From NCBI RefSeq assembly GCF_013839445.1, contig NZ_JACDIT010000001.1, positions 860,658 to 924,657 on the forward strand: a DNA stretch of 64,000 bases. The letters are read 5' to 3'. Shown here one piece after another: positions 7,432 to 39,250 of this stretch; the first letter of the stretch is position 1; every line of letters begins with the position of its first letter. The translations under genes were made by a program, and so were the position numbers. Source of the DNA: Chthonobacter albigriseus. GTDB taxonomy: Bacteria; Pseudomonadota; Alphaproteobacteria; Rhizobiales; Pleomorphomonadaceae. The notes under the pieces are model-generated. The model was not told the origin of the DNA and did no database searches. It worked only from the letters and a program-made list of their open reading frames with translations.

Positions 7432-7508
7432 GTCCGCCTCCCCAGGTGGATAAGGGCGGTCGTTCGCTGGCGGTTGATGCCCGCTCGTCGGCAGGTCGGC
7501 CTGGAGGA

Positions 7509-8129
7509 TCAGCCCTTCAGGACTTCCTTGCTTGCGATGCTTCCGTCCTCGTTCAGACGATATACGATCGGAACGCCCGTATCGAGTTCCCGGGCGACAA
7601 TCTCTTCGCCCGTCAACCCTTCCAACTGCATAATGAGCGCCCGCAGCGAATTGCCGTGCGCGGCAACGAGGACCCGTTCGCCCGCCATCACGCGAGGAAG
7701 TATTTCACGATCGAAATAAGGCAAGACCCGCTCGGCCGTGTTCTTCAGACTTTCGCCGCCGGGCGGGGGCACGTCGAAGGAGCGGCGCCAGACGTGGACC
7801 TGCTCTTCGCCCCAGCGGGCGCGGGCGTCGTCCTTGTTGAGGCCGGTCAACTCGCCGTAGTCGCGCTCGTTGAGGGCCTGGTCCCTGACCGTCGGCAAGT
7901 CGGTCTGGCCGATCTCCTCCAGGATGAGGCGGAGCGTGTGCTGTGCGCGCGTCAGCACGGAGGTATAGGCGACGTCGAAGCCGAGCTTCAGGTCGCGGAG
8001 CTTGCGGCCGGCGGCCTTGGCCTCCTCGATGCCCTGGGGCGTCAAGTCGGGGTCCTTCCAGCCGGTGAAGAGGTTCTTCAGGTTCCAGTCGCTCTGGCCA
8101 TGGCGGACGAGGACGAGCAGGCGGTTCAT
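7509..8129 (-). CDS. gpmA: 2,3-bisphosphoglycerate-dependent phosphoglycerate mutase
   Basis: N-terminal [12 protein letters not shown] catalytic His motif; 206 aa short-form alpha-proteobacterial GpmA. Confidence 0.9.
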
Positions 8130-8238
8130 GCGGGGGGAACTCCCTTCTGATGGAAGCGCCTGCCGGCTGCCGGCCGACGCCCTTTCCTGACACTCTCCGG
8201 CTGCCGCGTTTACCGCGTGTCAGCCGGACGGGACGCAA

Positions 8239-9048
8239 TCAATCGAGGCCGAGCACGTCGGCCATGGAGTAGCGGCCGGGCTTGCGGCCGCGGCCCCACA
8301 GCGCCGCCCGGAGGGCGCCGGTGGCGAACAAGGCGCGATCCTCGGCACGGTGGGTGAGTTCGATCCGCTCGCCGGCACCGGCGAAGATGACGGCGTGGTC
8401 GCCGACCACGGTGCCGCCGCGCAGGGCCGCGAAACCGATCGCGCCCTGCGGGCGGACGCCGGTCTGGCCGTCGCGGCCGCGGACGGCAGCGTCCTCGAGG
8501 CGGATCGCCCTGCCCTCGGCCGCGGCCCCGCCCAGCAGCAGCGCGGTGCCGGAGGGCGCATCCACCTTCATGCGGTGATGCATCTCGACGATCTCGATAT
8601 CCCACTCCGGACCCAGCGACTTCGCGGCGCGGCGAACGAGGCTGGCGAGCAGATTGACCCCGAGGCTCATGTTGCCGGACTTGACGACCACGGCGTGGCG
8701 CGCGGCGGCGTCGAACTTCGCCTCGTCCTCGGCCGAGCAACCGGTGGTGCCGACGACGTGGACGATACGGGCTTGGGCGGCGAGTTCGGCGAAGGCGACG
8801 CTGGCGGCCGGCGTGGTGAAGTCGAGGACACCCTCCGCCGCCGCGAAGGCGGGCAAGGGATCGTCGGTGACGGGCACGCCCAGTTCGCCGACGCCGGCGA
8901 GAAGGCCGGCGTCCCTGCCGAGATCGGCAGCGCCCTCCCGCTCGATCGCGCCGGAGAGGACGACGCCGGGGGTGGTGGCGACGGCGCGGATCAGCGTGCG
9001 GCCCATCCGGCCCGCTGCGCCCACCACGACGAGCTTCATGTCAGTCAT
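8239..9048 (-). CDS. dapB: 4-hydroxy-tetrahydrodipicolinate reductase
   Basis: 270 aa from [16 protein letters not shown] (NAD(P)-binding GxxGxxG). The [15 protein letters not shown] motif is characteristic of DapB. The upstream 159-codon ORF extension is GC-driven junk. Confidence 0.9.
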
Positions 9049-9214
9049 CCCAGCCGTTCCTCGCGAAAATCCCGAGCGGCCTCGCCTATAGCAGGCGGGC
9101 GCGGCGGGTGGAAAGGGCGAGGACGGCCTCTGCCGGCGATTCCGACCATGGTCGCATCCGGAGCGGCGGATGCCGCCTGCGGCCTCCCACCGGACACAGC
9201 GGCCGCATCGGCGC

Positions 9215-9991
9215 TCAGCGTTGCCCCATCTCGGCGACGGCGGCGAGGATGCGGGCGATGTCCTCGGGGCGTGAGAGGCGGTGGTCGCCGTCCTTGACGA
9301 GGGTGACGACCACGTCGTCGTGGACGAGGCGGTCGACGAGGAGAAGGGCGTGGGCGTAGGGGACGTCGGGATCCTGCATGCCCTGGACGATGTGGACGGG
9401 CGCGCCGATCCGGATGTCGTCGTCGAGGACGGTGTTGCGGGCACCGTCGTCCAGGAAGGCGCGGGTGATGACGGTGGGCTCGTCGGCGTAGGCGCTGGGA
9501 AGGCGCACGGAGCCGGTTGCGGCAAGCTCGCGACGCATGGCCTCGGTGAAGGCGGGCTCCATGAGGCGGGTGGCGAAATCCGGCGCCGGCGCGATCAGGA
9601 CGAGGCCGGCGAGCCGGTCGGCCCGATCGGCCGCCTGAAGCCGGCGGGCGAGGAGGAGTGCGATCCAGCCGCCCATGGAGGAGCCGACGAGGACGACCGG
9701 GCCTTCTGTGAAGCGATCGAGGACGGCCTCGGCCTCCTCCGCCCAGCGGCTGATGGTGCCGTCGGTGAAGAGGCCGCCGGAGGCGCCGTGGCCGGAATAG
9801 TCGAAGCGGACGACGCGGCGCCCGTTCCGCCGGCCCCACTCGGCCAGCGCCTCTGCCTTGGAGCCGGTCATGTCGGAGCGGAAGCCGCCGAGCCAGAGGA
9901 GCGCCGGTCCGACGCCTTCGTCGACGAGGAGGGCGATGGAGCGGGCGTCCGGGCCGGAGCCGACGACGAGCGTTTCGGGGGCGGACGGCAT
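9215..9991 (-). CDS. Alpha/beta hydrolase fold protein
   Basis: GSSMGG nucleophile elbow (GxSxG). Start at the internal Met [10 protein letters not shown]. Function not assignable from sequence. Confidence 0.7.
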
Positions 9992-10149
9992 GGGCGGACC
10001 TCGGGATGGGGTGCGGCGGGTGCGGGTTTGACGTTTGCCATGGTGGGCGGGTGTTGTGAATGGGCGGCGTGGGAAAACGGGGCTGTTCACGGCGCGCGCG
10101 GGAAAGGCGGGAGATCGGGGAAGGATCGCCGGCGCCGAGCGGGAGGGAA

Positions 10150-10217
10150 AAAAGCGTGGGTGGTCCGCCTGCGCGGACCATGACGGCGGGAAGGGGAGAG
10201 CGGGAGCGAGGGATAGG
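10150..10217. repeat. REP-like palindromic element copy A1 (core GGTCCGC-CTGC-GCGGACC plus ATGACGGCGGGAAGG flank)
   Basis: Same ~40-bp element recurs at 10290-10359, at 28757-28833 (reverse complement) and at 28827-28884. Confidence 0.7.
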
Positions 10218-10289
10218 TAGGACGATCAAGGGGGCAGGAGGAAATGTTGCAAAGTGGTGAGCCGGTGCCGAGCGGGCGCTTTCTGCTTT

Positions 10290-10359
10290 CATACCCGTCA
10301 TGGTCCGCGCAGGCGGACCATGAAGGCGGGAAGGGAGGAGGACGGAGCGAGCGAGACGG
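10290..10359. repeat. REP-like palindromic element copy A2 (TCATGGTCCGC-GCAG-GCGGACCATGA, 11-bp stem)
   Basis: Direct repeat of A1 including ~35 bp of downstream flank, with the 4-nt loop inverted. Confidence 0.7.
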
Positions 10360-10898
10360 CGCGACAGGGCGGGACGGCGGGGATATGCGGAGTGGGCAGC
10401 CGGGCGACCGAGTACCTTCGGCGTTCTCAACCGGCGTGGTCCGACTGCACGGGGGCGGGACAGTGGGAACGGTGAGGGAAGGGTTCATGGAAAGGAAGCG
10501 ATGACGGCGGAATCCCGCCGGGGTTGCCCAATCAGTATCCAGCCGAGGATTGACTTTTCGGCAGATAAGCACGACTTTGAGGCCCGTTGCTCCATGCGAT
10601 GGGCAGCCGTATCGATTCCTTGGATCCAGTGGCTCCTGCCGACGGCAGCGCACGGACCCAGGCTCCGGGGTGACCGGCGGGCGTTCCAGCGTTCCCCTGC
10701 AGGCACCACATCTCCCAGGGAGACCCGGATACCGAGCGGCGGCCCGCTTCGTGCGGGAAACCGGCGCCCCGGTCCTTCGTTTTCATCGAGGCTTTGTCCG
10801 GCAGCGATGCTTCCATGGCGAAGCGCTCGTCTGCGGCAAATGCCTTGGCGCTTCGAAGCCGATCGCCGTTCGTTGAAACAATAGAGGAGACACGAGCC

Positions 10899-11435
10899 AT
10901 TCGTCGCCCGTTCCGAGCCACTGCGCCGATCAAGGAAGGTCCGCGCGTCAACCGTGAAATCCGAGTTCCGCAGGTCCAGCTGATCGACGAGAACGGCGAG
11001 AACCGTGGGGTCGTCGCGATCCTGGACGCCCTTGCCGCCGCCAACGAGGCCGGGCTCGATCTCGTGGAGATCTCGCCGAACTCTACGCCGCCGGTCTGCA
11101 AGATTCTCGACGTGGGCAAGTTCAAGTACCAGTCGCAGAAGAAGGCCGCCGAAGCGCGCAAGAACCAGAAGACGGTTGAGATCAAAGAGATCAAGATGCG
11201 TCCGAACATCGACACCCACGACTACGAGGTGAAGATGAAGAGCATGCATCGGTTCTTCGAGGAAGGCGACAAGGTCAAGGTGACGCTGCGGTTCCGTGGC
11301 CGCGAGATGGCGCACCAGGACCTGGGCGTGAAGCTTCTGCTGCAAGTGCGCGACGAGACTGCGACCATCGCCAAGGTGGAGAGCGAGCCGCGCCTTGAAG
11401 GCCGCCAGATGGTGATGGTGCTCGCCCCGCGCTGA
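10899..11435 (+). CDS. infC: Translation initiation factor IF-3 with non-canonical ATT start
   Basis: Full-length IF-3 (…[20 protein letters not shown]… through …[12 protein letters not shown]). SD GAGGAGA at 10884-10890, then ATT at 10899 eight nt downstream, matching the conserved AUU autoregulatory start. The ORF track's ATG at 10794 adds a non-homologous 35-aa extension. Confidence 0.85.
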
Positions 11436-11462
11436 GCGAACGTCGCCCAGTCGAATTTCTGC

Positions 11463-11498
11463 AACGGCGTCGGGCCAACCGGCGCCGTTTCGCTTTTC
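11463..11498 (+). terminator. Putative intrinsic terminator after infC
   Basis: AACGGCG-loop-CGCCGTT stem followed by TCGCTTTTCGG. Confidence 0.4.
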
Positions 11499-11522
11499 GG
11501 GGACAGCGACGGGTCATTTTCG

Positions 11523-11798
11523 CTGTCATACCGACCTCACGAAGTCCTGACCCCTCTGCGTTTGCCAGGTTCGCCGATCGGGGCAGGAGCTGGTCGCAGC
11601 TCGACCGTCCGGTCGAGCAAGAACAGCGACGAACCCGGGCGGATGAACCTGACAAACCCTTCGGGCTCCCCGCTTTTGGCCGACTGCGGCGTCGCGCTCG
11701 GGGCATGGACGGACGTCCATGTCCCCTCCCGCTCCTGGCATTCGGCCAAAATCGGGGAGCGCAGACGGGTCAGGACTTCGTGAGGTCGGTATCAGTAG
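11523..11798. repeat. ~270-bp composite palindromic (MITE-like) element with 33-bp terminal inverted repeats
   Basis: ATACCGACCTCACGAAGTCCTGACCC(C/G)TCTGCG at 11527-11559 matches its reverse complement at 11758-11790 (32/33). The interior holds further hairpins (GCTCGACC-gtcc-GGTCGAGC; GGGGCATGGAC-g-GACGTCCATGTCCCC). The two short six-frame ORFs inside mirror each other (both end ...VRTS). Confidence 0.65.
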
Positions 11799-12469
11799 GG
11801 CGGGTAGCCGAAGATGTCGGTGAAGGCTGCGCGGGCCCGGGCCTCGGCGATCTCGGCCTCCCGAGCGGCCCTCGCCGCATCCATGCGGGCGGAGAAACCA
11901 TCGTCGAAGCCAAAGCGGCGGCTTTGGAGATTGGCGATGCGGTCGCGGATGTCGTCCCGCTCGTCGTCGCTGGCGTCGCGCATGCGGCGGCGCAGGTCGC
12001 GGATCTCGTCGGCGATGCGATCCTCCTCGTTCTCGGCCCGTCTGGCCTCGTCGGCGAGTTCGCGGGCTTCGCTGCGGGCCTGGTAGACGTCGGTGCCGAG
12101 GCCATAGGCGGTGAGGAAGTCGGCGCCGGCGCGGCCGGTACAGACGTTCTCGTAGCTCTTGCCCGCCGACCCGTTGGCAAAGCCGGAGACGGGCGTGCAA
12201 TAATCCTTCAATCCCTCAGACCGGCCGCGCTGCCAGGTGATGGCATCGACGCCGATCTTGTAGCGGGCGCAGGCCTTCTCGTGCTCGGCGAGGATGGCGG
12301 AGGACTTGCCGTTGCGGCCGTCGACGACGCCGATCTGGTACCAGTCGCCGGACTGGCACTGCTCCTTGGAGAGCGTGGAGCAGCCGGCAAGGACGAGGAA
12401 AAGGCCGACCAGCGCGCCCGCACCCGAAAGGGGCGCGGAGCGGCGCGGGCGGGCAACGGGAAAAGACAT
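11792..12469 (-). CDS. Putative lipoprotein with coiled-coil/charged C-terminal region
   Basis: Signal peptide with lipobox LAGC (MSFPVARPRRSAPLSGAGALVGLFLVLAGCS), conserved Cys pairs, and a C-terminal Arg/Asp/Glu-rich repeat region. No enzymatic motif. Confidence 0.65.
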   Translation of the reverse strand: MSFPVARPRRSAPLSGAGALVGLFLVLAGCSTLSKEQCQSGDWYQIGVVDGRNGKSSAILAEHEKACARYKIGVDAITWQRGRSEGLKDYCTPVSGFANGSAGKSYENVCTGRAGADFLTAYGLGTDVYQARSEARELADEARRAENEEDRIADEIRDLRRRMRDASDDERDDIRDRIANLQSRRFGFDDGFSARMDAARAAREAEIAEARARAAFTDIFGYPPY

Positions 12470-12585
12470 GGACGAGCTTTCGGTGACGGTGGGACTTTCG
12501 CGCACCGTCGGCCAAGGTTAACCGGATGTCAACGAGGGCGGAGGAGCCTTCCAAGGGGGCCGGCAGCAGGAGCGGGACGACGGCG

Positions 12586-13467
12586 ATGAGGCAGACGACG
12601 AGACGGGTGCTGGCGCTTGTCGCCGTTGCGGTAGCCATGCTGCCGGGACCGGCGGGCGCGGTGGACGAACGGCCGGCCAAGGAGCTGTTCGGCGCAGCGC
12701 GGACGCCCGCCGTGCTGGAAGCGCGGTCGATCGGCAGCTATGCCCGCGGGTGCCTGGCCGGCGCGCAGGCGCTGCCGGTGAACGGGGCGCGATGGCAGGT
12801 GATGCGCTTGTCGCGCAACCGCAACTGGGGCCACCCGGCGCTGGTGGCATACCTGGAGACTCTCGCCGGCAAGGCGCCCTCGGTCGGCTGGCGCGGGCTC
12901 CTGGTGGGCGACATGGCGCAGCCGCGCGGCGGGCCGATGCTGACCGGACACGCCAGCCACCAGATCGGGCTCGACGCGGACATCTGGCTGACGCCGATGC
13001 CGGACCGGGAGCTGACCCGGCAGGAGCGCGAAACGATCTCGGCGACGTCGATGCTGAGCGGCAAGGGCAAGGGGCCCTACGTGGACCCCGCGGTGTGGAC
13101 GGCGGCGCATGCGGCGATCATCCGCGCGGCGGCAAGCGACCGGGCGGTGGCGCGGGTGTTCGTCAACCCGGGGATCAAGAAGGCGCTCTGCGAGGGGGCG
13201 AGCGGCAACCGGAGCTGGCTGCGCAAGGTGCGGCCCTGGTGGGGGCACGACTACCACTTCCACGTCCGGCTCGCCTGCCCGTCGGGTGCGGTGGGCTGCA
13301 AAGACCAGGACGCCCCGCCGCCGGGAGACGGCTGCGGGGACGAACTGGCGGAGTGGTTCAAGCCGCCGGAGCCGGCGAAGAAGCCGGAGAAGCCGGCCAG
13401 GAAGCCGCGTCCGGTGACGCTGAAAGACCTGCCGCCGGCCTGCAGCCAGGTGCTCGTCTCCAATTGA
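12586..13467 (+). CDS. mepA: Penicillin-insensitive murein endopeptidase (LAS metallopeptidase)
   Basis: Signal peptide, then MepA-like motifs (GHASHQIGLDADIW; WGHDYHFHVRL with the His zinc ligands). Confidence 0.8.
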   Translation: MRQTTRRVLALVAVAVAMLPGPAGAVDERPAKELFGAARTPAVLEARSIGSYARGCLAGAQALPVNGARWQVMRLSRNRNWGHPALVAYLETLAGKAPSVGWRGLLVGDMAQPRGGPMLTGHASHQIGLDADIWLTPMPDRELTRQERETISATSMLSGKGKGPYVDPAVWTAAHAAIIRAAASDRAVARVFVNPGIKKALCEGASGNRSWLRKVRPWWGHDYHFHVRLACPSGAVGCKDQDAPPPGDGCGDELAEWFKPPEPAKKPEKPARKPRPVTLKDLPPACSQVLVSN

Positions 13468-13473
13468 CCCGGG

Positions 13474-13653
13474 TCAGTTGCCGTGGCTGCGGCGGTTCTC
13501 CGCCTCGTAGACCTCGTGCGAGCCGATCTCGCCGGCTCGCTTCTCGCCCACTGTGCGATGGCGGTTGCGCATGATGCCGTAGACGAACCCGGCGCCGAGC
13601 AGCGCCGCGCCGCCGGCAGTGACGATCAGCCAAAGAAAGGAATATCCGTCCAT
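13474..13653 (-). CDS. Small (59 aa) single-TM membrane protein, not in the ORF track (below 60-aa cutoff)
   Basis: ATG preceded by GGAGAC SD. Product is MDGYSFLWLIVTAGGAALLGAGFVYGIMRNRHRTVGEKRAGEIGSHEVYEAENRRSHGN, one TM helix plus a charged tail. It lies convergent to mepA, immediately downstream of pheT, with its SD inside an 11-bp hairpin. Confidence 0.5.
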   Translation of the reverse strand: MDGYSFLWLIVTAGGAALLGAGFVYGIMRNRHRTVGEKRAGEIGSHEVYEAENRRSHGN

Positions 13654-13719
13654 GATCGAGTCTCCGTTCTCCCTCGTTGAAGGGAGAACGGTCTCGGACG
13701 GGCGCTGTTCCCTTCAGCT

Positions 13720-16143
13720 TCAGCCGCGCAGCGTCGCACCCGTCGCCTTGGAGACCGCGGCGACGATCGCCTGGGAAGCCGCCTCGATCTCCTCCTCCGT
13801 CAGCGTCTTCTCCGACGGGACGAGGGTGACTTCGATGGCGACGGACTTGCGGCCTTCGCCAACGTGCTCGCCGCGGAAGACGTCGAACACCTGGACACCG
13901 CCGACGAGGCCCTTGCGGGCGCCCTCGGCCGCCTTGAGGATGCGGGCGGCTTCCACGTCGTCGGCGACAATGAAGGCAAAGTCGCGCCGGACGGGCATCA
14001 GGTCGGAGGCGGCGAGGACCGGCTTGGCCTTGCTCGCCTTGGCCTTCGGCTGCGGGATCTTCTCCAGGATGATCTCGGCGGCGACGATCGGCCCGGCGAC
14101 GTCGAGCGCCTCCAGGACGGCGGGGTGCAGTTCGCCGAAGTGGCCGATCACCGTTTGCGGGCCGAGCTGGATCGTGCCGGACCGGCCGGGGTGGAACCAG
14201 GACGGGGCGGTGCGGACGACCTGCGCCTTGGAAACGTCGAAGCCGAGGGCGTCCAGGAGCGCGAAAGCGTCGGCCTTGGCATCGTAGACGGTGACGGGAC
14301 CGGACGCGCCGCTCCAGTGGCGGCCGCTGCCGATAAGGCGGGCAGTGCCGCGGCGGATGGCGGTGGCGGCGGTGGACTGGTCCTCCGGACGGTCGCCGGC
14401 GAAGATCTGGCCCACCTCGAAGAGGGCGAGGTCGCCGAAGCCGCGGTCGGCGTTGCGGCGGGCCGCGGCGACGAGACCGGGGATCAGGCTCGGGCGCATG
14501 TCGCTCATGTCGGCGGAGATCGGGTTGGCAAGCTTCAGCGCCGGCGCGCCGCCGCCGAACAGCGTCGCCTGGGCCTCCGAGACGAAGGACCAGGTCACCG
14601 CCTCCACGAGACCTTCGGCGGCCAGCACGCGCTTGGCGCGGCGGGTGCGGATCTGGATCGGGGTCAACACCTTGGCGGAGACGCTGGCGAGACGCGGCAG
14701 GGGCGTGGAGCGGACCGCGTCGAGGCCGATGATGCGGACCACCTCCTCGACGAGATCGGCCTTGCCCTCGATGTCCGGGCGCCAGGACGGCACGGTAACT
14801 GCGAGGTCGTGGCCGAAGCCGGCGACGCCGAAGCCGAGTGCCTCCAGGACGGCGCGGACCTCGGCGATCGGCAGGTCGAGGCCGGAGAGACGCTTGACCT
14901 CGGAAACTGGGAAGTCGACGACCTTGACCACGACGGGCGGCTGGCCGGCCATCACGGCCTCGGACGGCTCGCCGCCGCAGAGCTCGATGACCATCATGGT
15001 CGCAAGCTCCAGGCCGGCGAGGACGAAGGCCGGGTCGACCCCGCGCTCGAAGCGGTAGCGCGCGTCGGAGTTGATACCGAGCTTGCGGCCGGTTCGGGCG
15101 GTGCGGTTCGGGTCGAAGTAGGCGCTCTCGATGAAGACGTCGGTGGTTGCCTCGGTGGAGCCGGAGGCCTCGCCGCCGATGATGCCGCCGAGGCCGAGGA
15201 CACCGGCGTCGTCGGCGATCACCGTCATCGTCTCGTCGACGGCGTAGGTCTTGCCGTCGAGCGCGAGGAAGCTCTCGCCGGCGCGGCCGAGGCGGGCGTG
15301 GACGGTGCCGGTGAGCCTGGCGGCATCGTAGACGTGCAGCGGACGGCCGCGGTCGTAGGAGACATAGTTGGTGATGTCGACGAGCGCGGATATCGGGCGG
15401 AGGCCGACGGCCTTCAGGCGGTCCTGCAGCCACTTGGGCGAGGGGCCGTTGCGGACCCCGCGAACGAGGCGGCCGGCGAACACCGGGCAGGCATTCTCCG
15501 CCGTCTCCGGGAAGCGCAGCGCGACCGGCACCGGGCACGGATAGGCGCCGCGGACCATCTCCACGGTGTCGGGCTTCAGCCGGCCAAGGCCGCGGGCGGC
15601 GAGATCGCGGGCGATGCCGCGCACGCCGAGGCAGTCGGGCCGGTTCGGGGTGATGGCGATCTCGATGACGGGATCGCCGAGGCCGAGGTAGTCGGCGAAG
15701 GAGGTGCCGACGGGGGCGTCCGCGGGCAGCTCGATGATGCCGTCGTGGGCCTCCGACATCAGGAGCTCGCGCTCGGAGCACATCATGCCGCGGGATTCGA
15801 AGCCGCGGATAGTGCCGACGGCAAGGTCGATGCCGGTGCCGGGAATATGAGTTCCCGGCGCGGCGAAGACGCCGACGAGGCCGGCGCGGGCGTTGGGAGC
15901 GCCGCAGACCACCTGGACGGGCTCGCCGCCGCGGCCGTCGTCGACGGTGAGGACGCGCAGCTTGTCGGCGTTGGGGTGCTTGTCGGCGGTGAGCACCCTG
16001 GCGATCGTGAAGGGCTTGATGGCGGCCGAGGGGTCGGAGACGCCCTCCACCTCCAGGCCGATCATCGTCAGCGCCTCGACGACGTCATTGAGGGAGGCCT
16101 CGGTGTCGAGGTGATCCTTGAGCCAGGAAAGGGTGAATTTCAT
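13720..16143 (-). CDS. pheT: Phenylalanine--tRNA ligase beta subunit
   Basis: 807 aa starting [14 protein letters not shown]; tRNA-binding, B3/B4 and B5 domains; full-length PheT. Confidence 0.95.
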
Positions 16144-16168
16144 CGGTCGGTCGTCCGGTTCGGTTCGA

Positions 16169-17251
16169 TCAGCTCGTCAGCCCGCCGAGGAGGTTCGGCA
16201 GGTCAAGGGGGCGGAAGCCGTAGTGCTTCAGCCAGCGGACGTCGGCGTCGAAGAAGGCGCGCAGGTCAGGCATGCCGTATTTCAGCATGGCGATGCGGTC
16301 GATCCCCATGCCCCAGGCGAAGCCCTGGACCTCGTCGGGATCGAGGCCGCAGTTGCGGATCACGTTGGGGTGGACCATGCCGCAGCCGAGGATCTCCAGC
16401 CAGTCGTCGCCCTCGCCGATGCGGATCTCCGAGCCGGAGCGACGGCAGCCGACGTCGACCTCCATGGACGGTTCCGTGAAGGGGAAGAAGGACGGGCGGA
16501 AGCGCGTCTTGACGTGGTCGACCTCGAAGAAGGCCTTGAGGAACTCCTCCAGGATCCATTTGAGGTGGCCGAAGTGGCTGGAGCGGTCGATCACCAGACC
16601 TTCGACCTGGTGGAACATCGGCGTGTGAGTCGCGTCGCTGTCGCAGCGGTAGGTGCGGCCGGGGATGACGACGCGGATCGGCGGCGGCTGGCTGATCATC
16701 GTGCGAATCTGCACCGGGGACGTGTGCGTGCGCAGCAGGAGACGCGAGCCGTCCTCCTTCGGGTTGAAGAAGAAGGTGTCGTGCATCTCCCGCGCCGGAT
16801 GATCGGCCGGGAAGTTGAGGGCGGTGAAGTTGTAGTGGTCGGTCTCGATGTCCGGGCCTTCGGCGACGGAAAAGCCCATGTCGGCGAAGATGGCGGTGAT
16901 CTCGTCGATGACCTGACTGATGGGGTGGATGCGACCCTCCGACAGCGGGCCGGGCCGGACGGGCAGCGTGACGTCCACCGTCTCGCGGGACAGGCGGGCC
17001 TCGATGGCGGCCCGCCTCAGCACGCCGCGGCGGTCGGCGATGGCGGCGGCGACGCGATCCTTGGCCTCGTTGATGGCGGCGCCGCGCGTGCGACGCTCGT
17101 CCGGCGACATGGCGCCGAGGGTCTTCAGGAGTTCTGAGATCGAGCCCTTCTTGCCGAGGGCAGCGACGCGCACGCCCTCCAGCGCCGCTTCGTCGGCGGC
17201 GCCGTCGACGGCGGCAAGAATTTCGGTTTCCAGGCTGGCGAGATCGGACAT
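16169..17251 (-). CDS. pheS: Phenylalanine--tRNA ligase alpha subunit
   Basis: 360 aa from [12 protein letters not shown] with class II aaRS motifs. The upstream 29 codons of the ORF are not conserved. Confidence 0.92.
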
Positions 17252-17420
17252 GACGGATGCTGGCTTTCGTGTTGGTCGGGCGGGTTCTATCGCGGAAAAC
17301 ACGACCCTGCCACTTCGTTCTTCGATCGACCGGGACAAGAAAAAGGCGGCGCACCGACCGGTACGCCGCCCTTGATCTCCAGCGACCGGTCTTCAGACCG
17401 GCCCGTCCTCATCACGACGG

Positions 17421-17786
17421 TCAGACCGCCGCGGCACGGGCCTTTTCGACCAGCGCCTTAAAGCTTTCCGGCTCGCGGATCGCGATGTCGGAGAGCACCT
17501 TGCGGTCCACCGCGATGCCCGCCTTGGCGAGCAGGTCGATGAAGCGGGCATAGGTGAGCTCGCCGCCGGTCACGTCACGGACGGCCGCGTTGATGCGCTG
17601 GATCCAGAGAGCGCGGAAGTTGCGCTTCTTGGCCCGGCGGTCCCGGGTGGCATACTGCATCGCGCGATCGACGGCCGCCTTGGCGGTACGGATCGTGTTC
17701 TTGCGACGGCCACGGAAGCCCTTCGCCTGAGCGAGGACCTTCTTGTGCTTGGCATGGGCTGTGACGCCCCGCTTAACGCGCGCCAT
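17421..17786 (-). CDS. rplT: 50S ribosomal protein L20
   Basis: [18 protein letters not shown]… canonical L20. Confidence 0.97.
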
Positions 17787-17825
17787 GGTTCAGATCTCCT
17801 GATTGGTGTCCGATAGCGCGAGGGG

Positions 17826-18026
17826 TCAGCCGTTGCGCAGGAAGTTCTTCTTGATGATCTTGGCGTCGGCGTCGCTGAGCACCGTGGTGCCGCGCGCCTG
17901 GCGGATGAACTTGGTCGTCCGCTTGATCATCCCGTGACGCTTGCCGGCCTGGGCGGATTTCACCCGGCCGTTGGCGGTGATCTTGAAGCGCTTCTTGGCG
18001 CCGGACTTGGTCTTCAACTTGGGCAT
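17826..18026 (-). CDS. rpmI: 50S ribosomal protein L35
   Basis: [23 protein letters not shown]… canonical L35. Confidence 0.97.
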
Positions 18027-18638
18027 TTTGCTCGTTTCCGAGTGCTATCGGGATCGGCCGAAGCCGTCACCGGTTGTCCTTTGTCCGAACCCATGGGCGC
18101 GTTCCGGCCACGGCCTTGCCGAGGCTGAAACCGACCGGTCGTCCGGGGTTGAGCGTTCGAGGCCGCCACGGCATGCCCTTGGGAACGGAGAACCGCCCCC
18201 GAGCCGGTCGACCCGAAGTGCGCGCGTTCTAGCGGAACACGGGGAAAAGTGCAAGTCGCCGGTGATCATGGCAGCAGCGCCGAGGACGGACCATCGGATA
18301 TCGATCCGCATATTTGACGATGTTCCGGCCTTCCATCAGCTTTGACGCCGAGGGAGGCGGAAGCAGCAGCGCCGATCCAGCGGCGCGCCCGGGGAGGATG
18401 GGCCACCCCGGCCGTGGCGACGGCCTCGCCCTCCGTGGAGGAGTCCGGCCATGTCGCGAAGGCGATGGAAGCTGGAGGTTCACCTGGCCAGAGATGCGGA
18501 CCGCTGGATTGTAACGGTCCGCATCACACTGGTGAGATGAGCATAGGGGCGGGGAGTTCGCAGCTTCCCGTCCCACTCCTGCAGTTTAGCAGAAAATGAC
18601 GAGGGATCAACGCTGGGCACTGCTCCGCCAAGGCTGAC

Positions 18639-20531
18639 CTAGAGGGATGGGCGCAATCCCAGCCGGCCAGGCGTGCCGGTGACGGAGAGCGCGTCGATGC
18701 GTACGGACGGATCGGCGCCGTCGATGCGGTAGACGAGAATGCTGTCGGTCACGCGGAGGGGTAGCAGCCAAGCGGGCGCGGCTCCGTTCAGGACGCGGGC
18801 GAGAAGGCCGTCCGGCGCCTTCTTTGTCACCGGCGGGTTGGCGCGATCGGCTCTGCAGACGGCAAGGTAGGTGGCACCGAGGCGGGACAGCAGCGTTCGA
18901 TCCGGCCCCGCCGGGGCGGTGAGGATCTCCTCCATGGCGATGATGCCCTCGCCGCCGCGATGGTAGGGCGCGGCGTAAACGCTGTGCTCGGTGCGGAAGA
19001 GGAGAAAAGCGCCGAGCATGACGGTGGCTGCGACCTTGCCGGGCGGCTCGGCGGAGAGGGTTTCGCCGAGTTCGACGCGGCAGGTGCCGAAATCGGCGTA
19101 TTCGGCGGTGCGCCGGTCCGCGGTTTCGTCGATCCACGGCAACAGCAGGAAGAACCAAGCGATCGGCGCCAGAGGAAGCCAGATGGATCGCTTCAGCACC
19201 GCCAGGAGGCCGGTTTCGCCGCGGTGGCGCTGCCAGACGAGGCCTACGGCCGCGGCACCAAGGGCGACGGCGAGCGACTGGGCAGGGACGGTACCGCGGA
19301 TCTGAAAGGTTCCGACCGCGAGGCAGGCGGCGATCAGGCCGATAAGGCAGGCGAAGCCGATCCGGTCGGACCGGGCGAGTTTGCGGCCGACAACAGCGGC
19401 AACCACGCAGGCAAGGACCGGAGGGCCGAAGAGGATGGGAACCGTCGTCGGGTCGTTGCTCCAGACGATGAAGATGTTCTGCGCCTCGGTGGTGAGATCC
19501 AGCCAGATCGGCTGGAGCGCCGGATCGACGCCGGCATACGGGCCGCCAAGACAGAGCGGGAAATAGAGCGCGGCAATCCAGATCACGAAGGCGCCGACGG
19601 CCGCCAGCGCGCCGCCGCGGATGAGCATGCCGGCACGACCGTCGCCCGGTTCGCCGCGCAGCAGCGAAGCGACCGCGGCCAGACCGAGGCCGCTGATGCC
19701 GGCCGAGACCAGGTAGACGGGCGAGAGGGCGTCGCAGGCAAGGGCCGACCAGCGGTCCGGCCCGACCGTGGCGAAGAAGAGTGCGGCTGTGGAAAGCGCG
19801 AAGGCAACGCCGAAGCCGGTCGCAGCGCTGCGGTAGCGCCGTCCGTCGAACACCCAGGCGAGGCTGAGGCCGGCGGCGGCTATGGCAACGGCGTGGATCA
19901 CCTCCATGCCGATGGCGAGGCTGAGTCCGGCCATAAACCCTGCCAGCGCGCCGGCGCGCCAGCCGCCTGCGGCGCGGACGAGGCCGGCGACCATCCAGGC
20001 GATCAGGATGGCCTGGACGTTGTGGTGGTCGACGCGGCCGGGCAGGAAGATGCCGCCCACGGACGGGGAAACCAGGAACAGCGGGATGACCCAGAACGCG
20101 CCCGTCCAACCGGCGAAGCGGTGGGCGATGGCGGCGAGGCCGGCCAGGAAGGGCACGACGAGCAGCGGCGGCCAGAGGTTGACGGCGAGGCGTTCGGCCT
20201 CGGCGGGGCCAAGAGTCGGCTCCAAGGCGAGGATCAGGCCGGCGATGGGGGCATCGACCAGGCGCGACCAGTGCATGAAGACGCCATCGGGCGGGAAGAG
20301 GCGCGGCTGGAGGAGATCGTACCAGCCCTGGCCAGCGAGGAAGTCGCGGACCTCCACGATCCGCATCAGGCTGTCGGGATCGTCGAAACCATTCGCAATG
20401 GTTGCGTGCCAGCCGTGGAGGGCCAGGAGAAGCGCCGTCGCGAGACTGGCGAGCGCGAACAGGACAGGGGACGAGGGGCGCGCGGCCATTGGCAAGGCAT
20501 CCGCGGAGAGGGCGCCGGGTTTGAAGACCAT
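18639..20531 (-). CDS. Large polytopic membrane protein (>=12 TM), possible lipid-linked glycosyltransferase/ArnT-PMT-like
   Basis: 631 aa from MVFKPGALSADALPMAARPSSPVLFALASL. Many TM helices. Divergent from a GtrA-like gene. No soluble catalytic domain recognised, so function is inferred from topology and context only. Confidence 0.55.
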   Translation of the reverse strand: MVFKPGALSADALPMAARPSSPVLFALASLATALLLALHGWHATIANGFDDPDSLMRIVEVRDFLAGQGWYDLLQPRLFPPDGVFMHWSRLVDAPIAGLILALEPTLGPAEAERLAVNLWPPLLVVPFLAGLAAIAHRFAGWTGAFWVIPLFLVSPSVGGIFLPGRVDHHNVQAILIAWMVAGLVRAAGGWRAGALAGFMAGLSLAIGMEVIHAVAIAAAGLSLAWVFDGRRYRSAATGFGVAFALSTAALFFATVGPDRWSALACDALSPVYLVSAGISGLGLAAVASLLRGEPGDGRAGMLIRGGALAAVGAFVIWIAALYFPLCLGGPYAGVDPALQPIWLDLTTEAQNIFIVWSNDPTTVPILFGPPVLACVVAAVVGRKLARSDRIGFACLIGLIAACLAVGTFQIRGTVPAQSLAVALGAAAVGLVWQRHRGETGLLAVLKRSIWLPLAPIAWFFLLLPWIDETADRRTAEYADFGTCRVELGETLSAEPPGKVAATVMLGAFLLFRTEHSVYAAPYHRGGEGIIAMEEILTAPAGPDRTLLSRLGATYLAVCRADRANPPVTKKAPDGLLARVLNGAAPAWLLPLRVTDSILVYRIDGADPSVRIDALSVTGTPGRLGLRPSL

Positions 20532-20662
20532 TGACCAAGAACCGAGCTTCGGGAGAAGGAGGAGGGCTTCCTCGCGTCCGGTTAGCCTGCCCTTAACAGG
20601 ATGGAGAAAGGGTAAAGGCGCGCCGCGATCGTGCGGCCTTCTTGAAAAGGAACGGGCAAGGA

Positions 20663-21061
20663 ATGGCCGACCGGCTCGTCCGCTTCGTTTTCGTCGGTGC
20701 GACCGGCTTTGCGGTGGACGCCGGGCTGACCGAGGCCCTGGTGGCTGCGGGCTCATCGCCGCTGGTGGCGCGCGTGTTCGCGTTCGCGGTGGCGATCGGC
20801 GTGACCTACGGCCTGAACCGGGCGATCACCTTCGCCGACCGGAAAAGCGCGCGGGAGGCCGGCGGCCGGGTGGCCGAGGGCGGGCGGTACCTGGCCGTGA
20901 ACCTCGCCGCGATGGCGGTCAACTATGCGGTGTTCGCGGCGGTGCTGACAGCCGCGCCGGGACTGCGGCCGATGCTGGCGGTGGCCGCAGGATCGGGCGT
21001 GGCGATGGTGGTCAGCTACCTCGGGTATTCGCGCTTCGTGTTTCGGCAGATGCCGCGTTAG
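20663..21061 (+). CDS. GtrA-family small membrane protein (polysaccharide/lipid-linked sugar translocation associated)
   Basis: ~130 aa with 4 TM and a GtrA-like N-terminus (RFVFVGATGFAVDAGL). Confidence 0.7.
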   Translation: MADRLVRFVFVGATGFAVDAGLTEALVAAGSSPLVARVFAFAVAIGVTYGLNRAITFADRKSAREAGGRVAEGGRYLAVNLAAMAVNYAVFAAVLTAAPGLRPMLAVAAGSGVAMVVSYLGYSRFVFRQMPR

Positions 21062-23331: not shown

Positions 23332-23569
23332 TTGGGTGAACACGCGGACGTCGGCTCGTTTCCGCCTGCGGATCCGACATCACGAAACGCCGACCAGTTT
23401 CGCCAGAGGGGCCCGGATCCGCCTGAGATGGACCGTATATGGCGAAGCCAAGGCGACGTTCAAGAGGCGCTCTAAGGGATAATGCTTATGGTGTATTGAA
23501 TGTATCAGGCCTGTCCAGCGCGCCGGGAGGGAGCGACGGCGCAGACCGATCGTTCCGAGGAGAAGCGGC

Positions 23570-28756: not shown

Positions 28757-28833
28757 TCTCAATCGTCATGGTCCGCGCAGGCGGACCACCCACGCATTTC
28801 TCGTCAACCCGCCGACCACGGCAAGGAAAAAGT
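28757..28833. repeat. REP-like palindromic element copy B1 (reverse complement of A1)
   Basis: GTCATGGTCCGCGCAGGCGGACCACCCACGC equals the reverse complement of the A1 core and flank; located in the dnaK-dnaJ intergenic region. Confidence 0.7.
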
Positions 28834-28884
28834 CGTGGGCGGTCCGTCTTCGCGGACCATGACGGGGAAACGGGCACACCACAG
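28827..28884. repeat. REP-like palindromic element copy B2 (same orientation as A1; loop variant TCTTC)
   Basis: AAAAGTCGTGGGCGGTCCGTCTTCGCGGACCATGACGGGGAAACGG. Forms an inverted pair with B1 (BIME-like). Confidence 0.7.
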
Positions 28885-39140: not shown

Positions 39141-39250
39141 GAGAAAAGGGTGGGAGGCCGACGAGTGACCCGAGCCGAAGCTCGTTGGGGCTGCTTCCTT
39201 CCGGACCTGACCCGGTTGGCGAGTGGCACGTCCACCGCCAACCTCCCGGC
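39141..39250 (-). ncRNA. ffs: Signal recognition particle RNA (4.5S/ffs, small bacterial type)
   Basis: Minus strand contains GGUCAGGUCCGGAAGGAAGCAGCC, identical to the E. coli 4.5S domain IV core. 5' GGGAGG pairs with 3' CCUCCC and it ends CACCCUUUUCUC. Sits ~100 nt upstream of dnaX as in the conserved ffs-dnaX-ybaB-recR cluster. Confidence 0.85.

Follow-up and report, generated by a model that had tools for sequence, protein, structure and literature searches.

A palindromic element of 265 bp (11528-11792) lies between infC and a DUF2799 lipoprotein gene in the 64-kb window, i.e. the whole stretch of DNA that was analysed. It starts at the stop codon of the lipoprotein gene and is placed on a junction of a lineage-specific inversion, a point absent from the earlier note on this DNA. 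We tentatively favour the view that it is a MITE-like insertion at the DUF2799 stop, within a newly formed convergent junction, and that it acts at most as a passive 3′ RNA structure. On this best reading, the element is specific to the lineage of the soil bacterium Chthonobacter albigriseus, and would be an orphan or else an old and diverged representative of some small family.

A three-armed palindrome at a stop codon

The element is bounded by two terminal inverted repeats (TIRs) of 33 nt each, the left one (ATACCGACCTCACGAAGTCCTGACCCCTCTGCG) at 11528..11560 and the right one at 11760..11792, with 199 nt of spacer between them. Both were obtained by an inverted-repeat search combined with shuffling. 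The two arms are complementary at 32 of 33 positions (97%), the sole mismatch being C11554 against C11766, and such a match arose in 0 of 100 dinucleotide-preserving shuffles of the window; the near-perfect 33-bp repeats described from the sequence alone are therefore borne out. The arm sequence occurs at these two sites only, and the entire 64-kb window holds a total of 4 inverted repeats of at least 20 nt within 600 nt. The element had been described as a 270-bp unit spanning 11523-11798, which is here corrected to the 265 bp given above, or to 263 bp (11529-11791) should the flanking TCA prove to be a target duplication.

The interior had been thought to consist of further perfect hairpins. 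Instead, it comprises two imperfect hairpins with numerous internal loops, which are perfect at their apical stems. The left inner hairpin (11560..11657, from minimum-free-energy helices) has the apex GCTCGACC-GTCC-GGTCGAGC at 11599-11618, with a perfect apical stem of 8 bp. The right inner hairpin (11665..11760), seen in both the inverted-repeat search and the predicted fold, has arms of 23 nt (11665-11687 and 11738-11760) that are 91% complementary, and its apex is a perfect 11-bp stem (11700-11710 paired with 11715-11725). Between the two lies a junction mini-hairpin, CCCTTCGGG (11657..11665, from the predicted fold and the sequence), at the centre of a three-way junction. Thus, rather than the single hairpin of about 130 bp proposed earlier, folding of RNA and DNA on both strands gives a Y shape, i.e. 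a three-way junction, both as RNA of either strand and with DNA parameters. The outer stem is made of 26 + 5 bp, split by the lone C/C mismatch. The predicted free energy is -188.7 kcal/mol, as compared to -116.9 +/- 5.2 kcal/mol for the shuffles (z = -13.7).

The left and right halves of the interior show marginal complementarity to one another (z about 2). The test was not significant, and we rejected the ideas that the interior is a decayed long palindrome and that the two inner hairpins are copies of each other.

On the left, the element is neighboured by infC (10899..11435, + strand; Pfam IF3_N and IF3_C), which encodes translation initiation factor IF-3. Its product is 100% identical to IF-3 of C. 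albigriseus (family Pleomorphomonadaceae), while its start codon is uncertain, the database versions being 178 and 206 aa long. infC has its own intrinsic terminator outside the element (11463..11499, + strand; terminator scan and conservation), which consists of an 11-bp GC-rich stem at 11463-11489 followed by the tail TCGCTTTTCG at 11490-11499. It is the only terminator-like site found by a consensus scan of 11300-12700. Its hairpin and T-run are conserved in three related loci (L008, L009 and L010), in which homology to the window ends at about 11495, before the element.

On the right lies the DUF2799 lipoprotein gene (11795..12469, - strand; Pfam PF10973, E = 5e-20), to whose product a 225-aa homologue, P0001, shows 98% identity; mepA (peptidase M74) lies beyond the gene. 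The TGA stop codon of this gene occupies 11792..11794 (- strand), as read from the sequence and the list of open reading frames, so that T11792, the final base of the right arm, is also the third base of the TGA on the minus strand. Hence, the earlier observation that the right repeat ends at the stop codon holds. The element does not, as had been stated, fill the whole gap between the two genes, since infC ends at 11435 and its own terminator occupies 11463-11499. Because the element starts at the stop codon, the DUF2799 transcript must read into it, and no terminator-like structure was found downstream of DUF2799 on the minus strand in the 11300-12700 scan.

The symmetry of the element produces the two mirror-image pseudo-ORFs that had been noticed earlier: 11562-11783 (+ strand), of 73 aa, and 11537-11749 (- strand), of 70 aa. 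These are not coding-like. Both have TTG starts, no ribosome-binding site is evident by eye in the 20 nt upstream, and their GC content by codon position is 0.57/0.66/0.77, as compared to a GC3 of 0.85-0.92 in the real neighbouring genes. When the translations of the element in all six frames were concatenated and searched against 5.8 billion proteins, no homologue was found; as a test for other copies of the element this search is weak, given that gene callers called no ORF in the element even in a contig that carries it (L002, see below).

Ends, copy number and a hint of a second context

The termini of the element read TCA-[TACCGACC...GGTCGGTA]-TCA. The left copy of the candidate TCA target-site duplication was read from the sequence at 11526..11528, and the right copy is the DUF2799 stop codon itself. 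The ends are of the form TA...TA, and TA is the alternative duplication. A T-N-A duplication would account for the repeat seeming to run one base into the flank on either side (A11528 and T11792), and duplication of TCA would explain the regenerated stop codon. The candidate duplication is only 3 bp long, there is no second copy for comparison, and a rough estimate places its probability by chance at 0.01-0.05.

Searches for other copies returned the known one only. There is no second copy in the 64-kb window; an exact scan with the 22-nt TIR core matched none of 185,579 species-representative genomes and nothing in JGI metagenomes; a 19-mer of the repeat was not found in viral contigs; and blastn of the element against plasmid and phage collections gave no match. 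A gapped pattern of the two 11-nt termini had 11 matches in metagenomes, none of which is related to the element (9 share just the queried 11-12 nt). On copy number and target duplication, the check suggested earlier, these searches yield no copy beyond the known one, and the flanks a possible 3-bp TCA duplication. As a side observation, the gapped pattern hit by chance two large perfect palindromes, at 1948-2203 of L016 (inverted repeat of 117 + 29 nt, perfect) and at 3043-3306 of L021 (whose centre looks like tRNA-type sequence), both of which are probably assembly fold-back chimeras.

A scan of 34 large ORFs in the 64 kb turned up no transposase or recombinase, and no cognate IS with matching ends was found in the window. 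The surroundings are of a housekeeping character and include murJ, maeB, nth, lepA, dnaKJ, recR, dnaX and hrcA. Two further RNA features were found among them, both ordinary and expected: a terC RNA motif that precedes the TerC gene, at 23365-23424 (- strand), and, adjoining dnaX, the bacterial small SRP RNA at 39150-39246 (- strand).

Contig ends in Logan assemblies gave a hint of a second context for one end of the element. Two contigs, L006 (SRR3597124) and L007 (SRR4342127), both end at 11557, while L002 (SRR3597124) begins at 11528. The overlap is exactly 30 nt, which we take to be k-1 for Logan's k = 31, and it equals the outer 30 nt of the left TIR (11528-11557; ATACCGACCTCACGAAGTCCTGACCCCTCT). 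When a k = 31 graph is made from the sequence of the window only, it does not branch at this break, the two arms sharing just 26 exact bases; thus, the 30-mer must have another context in both read sets. A diverged second copy, a solo end or the end of a parent IS would fit such a break. L002 spans 11528 to 12750 without a break, crossing the interior and the right arm; these therefore have no 31-mer in common with the rest of its genome, and a recent identical copy is ruled out.

L006 and L007 begin at a REP-like repeat near 10160-10320, indicating that Logan breaks in this region track repeats. The repeat (CCGTCATGGTCCGCGCAGGCGGACCA) is a small hairpin itself and occurs as inverted pairs at 10161-10186 / 10295-10320 and 28764-28802 / 28826-28864, i.e. 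in the abhydrolase-infC and dnaJ-dnaK intergenic regions. It has sub-threshold matches to the Rfam model CRISPR-DR28, and the breaking of Logan contigs at it suggests many copies in the genome. With respect to membership in a REP, BIME or RIME family, the element is unrelated to this REP-like family of the window (10161-10320 and 28764-28864).

The element in a sister strain and its absence from relatives

The Logan contig L002 carries the whole element with 2 substitutions relative to the window, both in the left inner hairpin: G>C at 11580 disrupts a predicted G-C pair, and the other, at 11593, falls on an unpaired base. The flanks are identical between the two strains over 744 nt on the DUF2799 side and 1,398 nt on the infC side (L006), giving 2 substitutions in the 265 nt of the element versus 0 in about 2.1 kb of flanking DNA. 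Judging from these sequences, the element is stably inherited within the species, and nothing suggests selection on pairing. Further along, a tract at 12338-12660 is hypervariable between these two near-identical strains, with about 50 differences in about 320 nt. It takes in the ends of DUF2799 and mepA that encode the signal peptides, together with their divergent promoter, and could be a recombination patch or the result of diversifying selection.

On the DUF2799 side, homologues of more than 33% identity were found by protein search on short Logan contigs only, and a search for a related locus with the DUF2799 protein gave only a 40%-identical Pelagibacterium gene, which was uninformative. 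Three of the homologues (L003-L005, 62-48% identical) have no element after the stop codon, with 92-555 nt available. In these, the C-terminus ...FGYPPx-stop falls at the same position, meaning that the end of the protein is unchanged in the window. On the infC side, the closest relatives are L010, Mongoliimonas terrestris (GCA_001927285.1; PMC8026895) and GCA_013839525.1, in which the sequence past the infC terminator is unrelated to the window. The element is absent downstream of infC in 65 nt available in L010 and in several kb in L008 and L009. As to the earlier question of whether infC 3′ regions of relatives lack the element, they do so in the sequence available; none of them is a clean empty site, as the same relatives also lack the inversion described below.

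A 6.8-kb inversion with the element on one junction

In relatives, the order of genes is infC(+), one or more copies of a non-coding unit of about 260 nt, rpmI-rplT-pheS-pheT(+), a small ORF, mepA(-) and DUF2799(+), with DUF2799(+) converging on the gene of a membrane protein of about 640 aa (-). This order was taken from a JGI 40-kb contig and, as far as mepA, from M. terrestris and GCA_013839525.1. In the window, infC(+) and the element are followed by DUF2799(-), mepA(+), a 59-aa ORF(-), pheT(-), pheS(-), rplT(-), rpmI(-) and the non-coding unit(-), and then by a 705-aa gene(-). Gene order and BLAST orientation delimit an inverted block of about 6.8 kb (11792..18613), extending from DUF2799 through the rpmI-upstream unit. 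The first junction comprises 11496-11527 and the element. The second, placed by comparison with relatives, is 25 nt long (18614..18638), has no copy of the element, and is bordered by the rpmI-upstream unit on one side and, on the other, by the stop codon of the 705-aa membrane-protein gene (18639-20756, - strand), whose conserved C-terminus is kept. As judged from these alignments, the rearrangement is a simple inversion of about 6.8 kb with the element on one of its junctions. GC skew was considered as a clock for the inversion and proved uninformative, the skews being small and tracking the gene strand.

Other rearrangements occur nearby. Ahead of infC, the region at about 7500-10100 likewise differs in arrangement from M. 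terrestris (L023 3600-9500): dapB and a histidine phosphatase gene are on the minus strand and adjoin the abhydrolase gene, and mutS and an acetyltransferase gene are missing from between them. In L010 (SRR21979499), an uncultured relative with infC DNA 89% identical to that of the window, infC is directly preceded on its strand by the 3′ end of mepA (5-248 and 667-1291). This is a third arrangement of the same genes, which suggests that the neighbourhood is a rearrangement hotspot in the family.

The non-coding unit directly upstream of rpmI (18357-18613 in the window, - strand) is conserved, and in relatives it is always found between infC and rpmI (L023 about 10670-11320; L024 about 10735-11790). 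It is present in one copy in the window, in two tandem copies in M. terrestris and in three in GCA_013839525.1. The unit begins with promoter-like sequence, GCGTTGAAG...CTGCTAT, and contains a hairpin of 13 perfect base pairs (GATGCGGACCGTT/AGCGGTCCGCATC), after which comes TCTTTCG; 7 of the 80 predicted pairs of its consensus fold show compensatory changes. Rfam gave no match to it at E up to 1, and on its antisense strand gene callers put an ORF of 29 aa. The unit may represent a leader of rpmI-rplT or a family of small RNAs, and is possibly more interesting than the palindrome.

The location of the element exactly on one inversion junction raises the alternative that it was never mobile, i.e. 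that fold-back, template switching or break repair during the inversion made an inverted duplication with filler, the interior of which then drifted into two local hairpins. We consider this unlikely, though it is the strongest of the competing accounts. In its favour, the element is single-copy wherever this could be searched, other rearrangements and local palindromic repeats are found nearby, and the interior retains the weak trace of two-fold symmetry noted above (z about 2). Against this, neither the arms nor the interior resemble the flanking DNA or the spacers of relatives, no local origin being found there at word size 7 and E up to 1, and the other junction is clean. Moreover, the arms end at TCA/TCA with the stop codon preserved, which is predicted by insertion and not by a repair scar, and, judging by the contig break, the outer 30 nt of the TIR occur in a second context as well.

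Weighing the MITE-like reading on the same evidence, the small size, the 33-bp TIRs, the lack of coding capacity, the intergenic position, the possible TCA or TA duplication and the absence from the flanks of relatives speak for it, while neither dispersed copies nor a clean empty site were found.

A possible selected function of the structure

A second alternative is that the shape itself is under selection, whatever its origin: as a U-tract-independent terminator or insulator between infC and DUF2799, as a 3′-UTR stabiliser, or as the precursor of a 3′-derived small RNA. The extreme predicted stability is in line with this, as is the start of the element at the stop codon, by which it is necessarily transcribed with DUF2799. 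The inversion deprived the DUF2799 gene of its ancestral 3′ region, no further terminator-like site is found for it, and MITE-borne structures that act on mRNA are known (PMC10969869).

Several results weigh against such a function and make it, in our view, rather improbable. No T-run follows the element on either strand, as it would in an intrinsic terminator; together with the conserved terminator that infC has upstream, this leaves the large bidirectional terminator suggested earlier unsupported in its canonical form. A search of the element against Rfam 15 gave as best overlap an 18-bit Plant_SRP fragment, with a gathering score of 105 bits for that model, and a scan of the whole window gave nothing at gathering score in the element region. 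The proposal of a structured RNA also loses ground in that the lone strain substitution within a predicted pair breaks that pair and is uncompensated, with the element carrying both of the differences found between the strains and the flanks none. In addition, no homologue was found outside one species, and long near-perfect helices typify DNA-level palindromes and not evolved RNAs.

Possible recombination at the element

There is a slight chance that the palindrome is an agent or scar of the inversion that separated infC from rpmI-rplT-pheST, and not a bystander. In that event, the ends of the element would have been used in an aberrant transposition or recombination that left one element at one junction, and the second context of the outer 30 nt would be an alternative junction that is still forming.

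Least probable is an inverton, in which a recombinase would act on the 33-bp repeats and switch the 199-bp interior from one orientation to the other: repeats of 20-35 bp around an intergenic segment of about 200 bp match known invertible promoters, and the TIR contig break in two read sets indicates an alternative junction of some kind, but a simple flip predicts branches at 11553/11554 or 11560/11561 and a matching break in the right arm, whereas the break is observed at 11557/11528 only and L002 crosses the right arm unbroken. Furthermore, a consensus scan found no promoter-like (sigma-70-like) site inside the element, the 3′ ends of both neighbours face it so that a flip has nothing obvious to switch, and the 34 large ORFs scanned in the 64 kb include no tyrosine or serine recombinase. 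Retrons, integron attC sites, CRISPR and dif were dropped as candidates, with no reverse transcriptase, integrase, cas gene, array or matching model found.

Discussion

Published MITEs are under 500-800 bp in size, with repeats of at least 10-15 bp and duplications of 2-10 bp; copies of MITEAba12 number 1-22 per genome (PMC10969869, PMC11602168). The size and TIR length of the element are inside these ranges. It resembles the MITEs Correia/NEMIS of Neisseria, Chunjie of Geobacter, MITEAba12 of Acinetobacter and QMITE of Coxiella in being small and non-coding, with long TIRs and possibly short direct repeats (TCA or TA), in its intergenic position abutting a gene end, and in having a transcript that is predicted to be very stable. 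It differs from them in that no dispersed copies, cognate IS or clean empty site were found. In addition, its GC content is 65%, while many MITEs are AT-rich, and its interior forms two further hairpins, giving a Y, while most MITEs form a single hairpin.

RIMEs are reportedly composites of side-by-side palindromes found in intergenic regions of Hyphomicrobiales genomes, as Osteras et al. are said to have described in 1995, and RIME-type elements are cited in the Sinorhizobium literature. RIME1 and RIME2 of rhizobia and BIME/REP clusters are multi-palindrome composites like the element, but they form multi-copy families. Invertons such as fimS likewise have inverted repeats around a short intergenic segment; the element differs from these in having no internal promoter match and no nearby recombinase, in lying 3′ of both genes, and in a break pattern that misfits a flip.

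For an element that starts at a stop codon, the best functional analogy is with the ERIC/IRU sequences of enterobacteria. ERIC elements are imperfect palindromes of 100-plus bp found at gene 3′ ends, where they are co-transcribed and affect mRNA decay (PMC10969869). They belong, however, to a conserved family that has a recognisable consensus and numbers 30-700 copies, whereas the element is an orphan without sequence similarity. Action of MITE-borne structures on mRNA has been described for Correia with RNase III, for ERIC with RNase E and for the terminator-like SPRITE, and for Correia cleavage by RNase III has been shown (PMC10969869); by analogy, the duplex of the element could be cut likewise.

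We propose the following course of events under the favoured reading of a MITE-like insertion. A core of 263 bp (11529-11791), with TIRs of 32-33 bp, would have inserted most likely at a T-C-A that is the DUF2799 stop (TGA on the minus strand), and duplication of the triplet would have left the end of the DUF2799 protein intact. The insertion site would be the convergent junction made by inverting rpmI-rplT-pheS-pheT...mepA-DUF2799 relative to infC. The present effect of the element would be passive: it would be transcribed as the 3′ end of the DUF2799 mRNA, and the transcript is predicted to fold into a very stable Y with an outer stem of about 31 bp and two inner hairpins. Such a structure could hinder 3′-to-5′ exonucleases, and its long near-perfect duplex is a plausible substrate for RNase III, like that of Correia and ERIC elements. 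The element would also separate DUF2799 transcription from that of infC, which probably stops at its own terminator before the element.

If this reading is true, the element is one more small defective transposon at the 3′ end of a gene, and an insertion that seems to have targeted and regenerated the stop codon explains the abutting geometry. For annotation, neither of its mirror-image ORFs should be called as a gene, and synteny is broken at the element. Were the element instead an agent or scar of the rearrangement, it would act as a recombination site that is still active, within a core housekeeping region. No other terminator is recognisable for the DUF2799 gene, and its mRNA may thus have co-opted the element as a 3′ end; the element also marks the seam of an inversion that uncouples infC from the normally adjacent rpmI-rplT-pheST in C. 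albigriseus.
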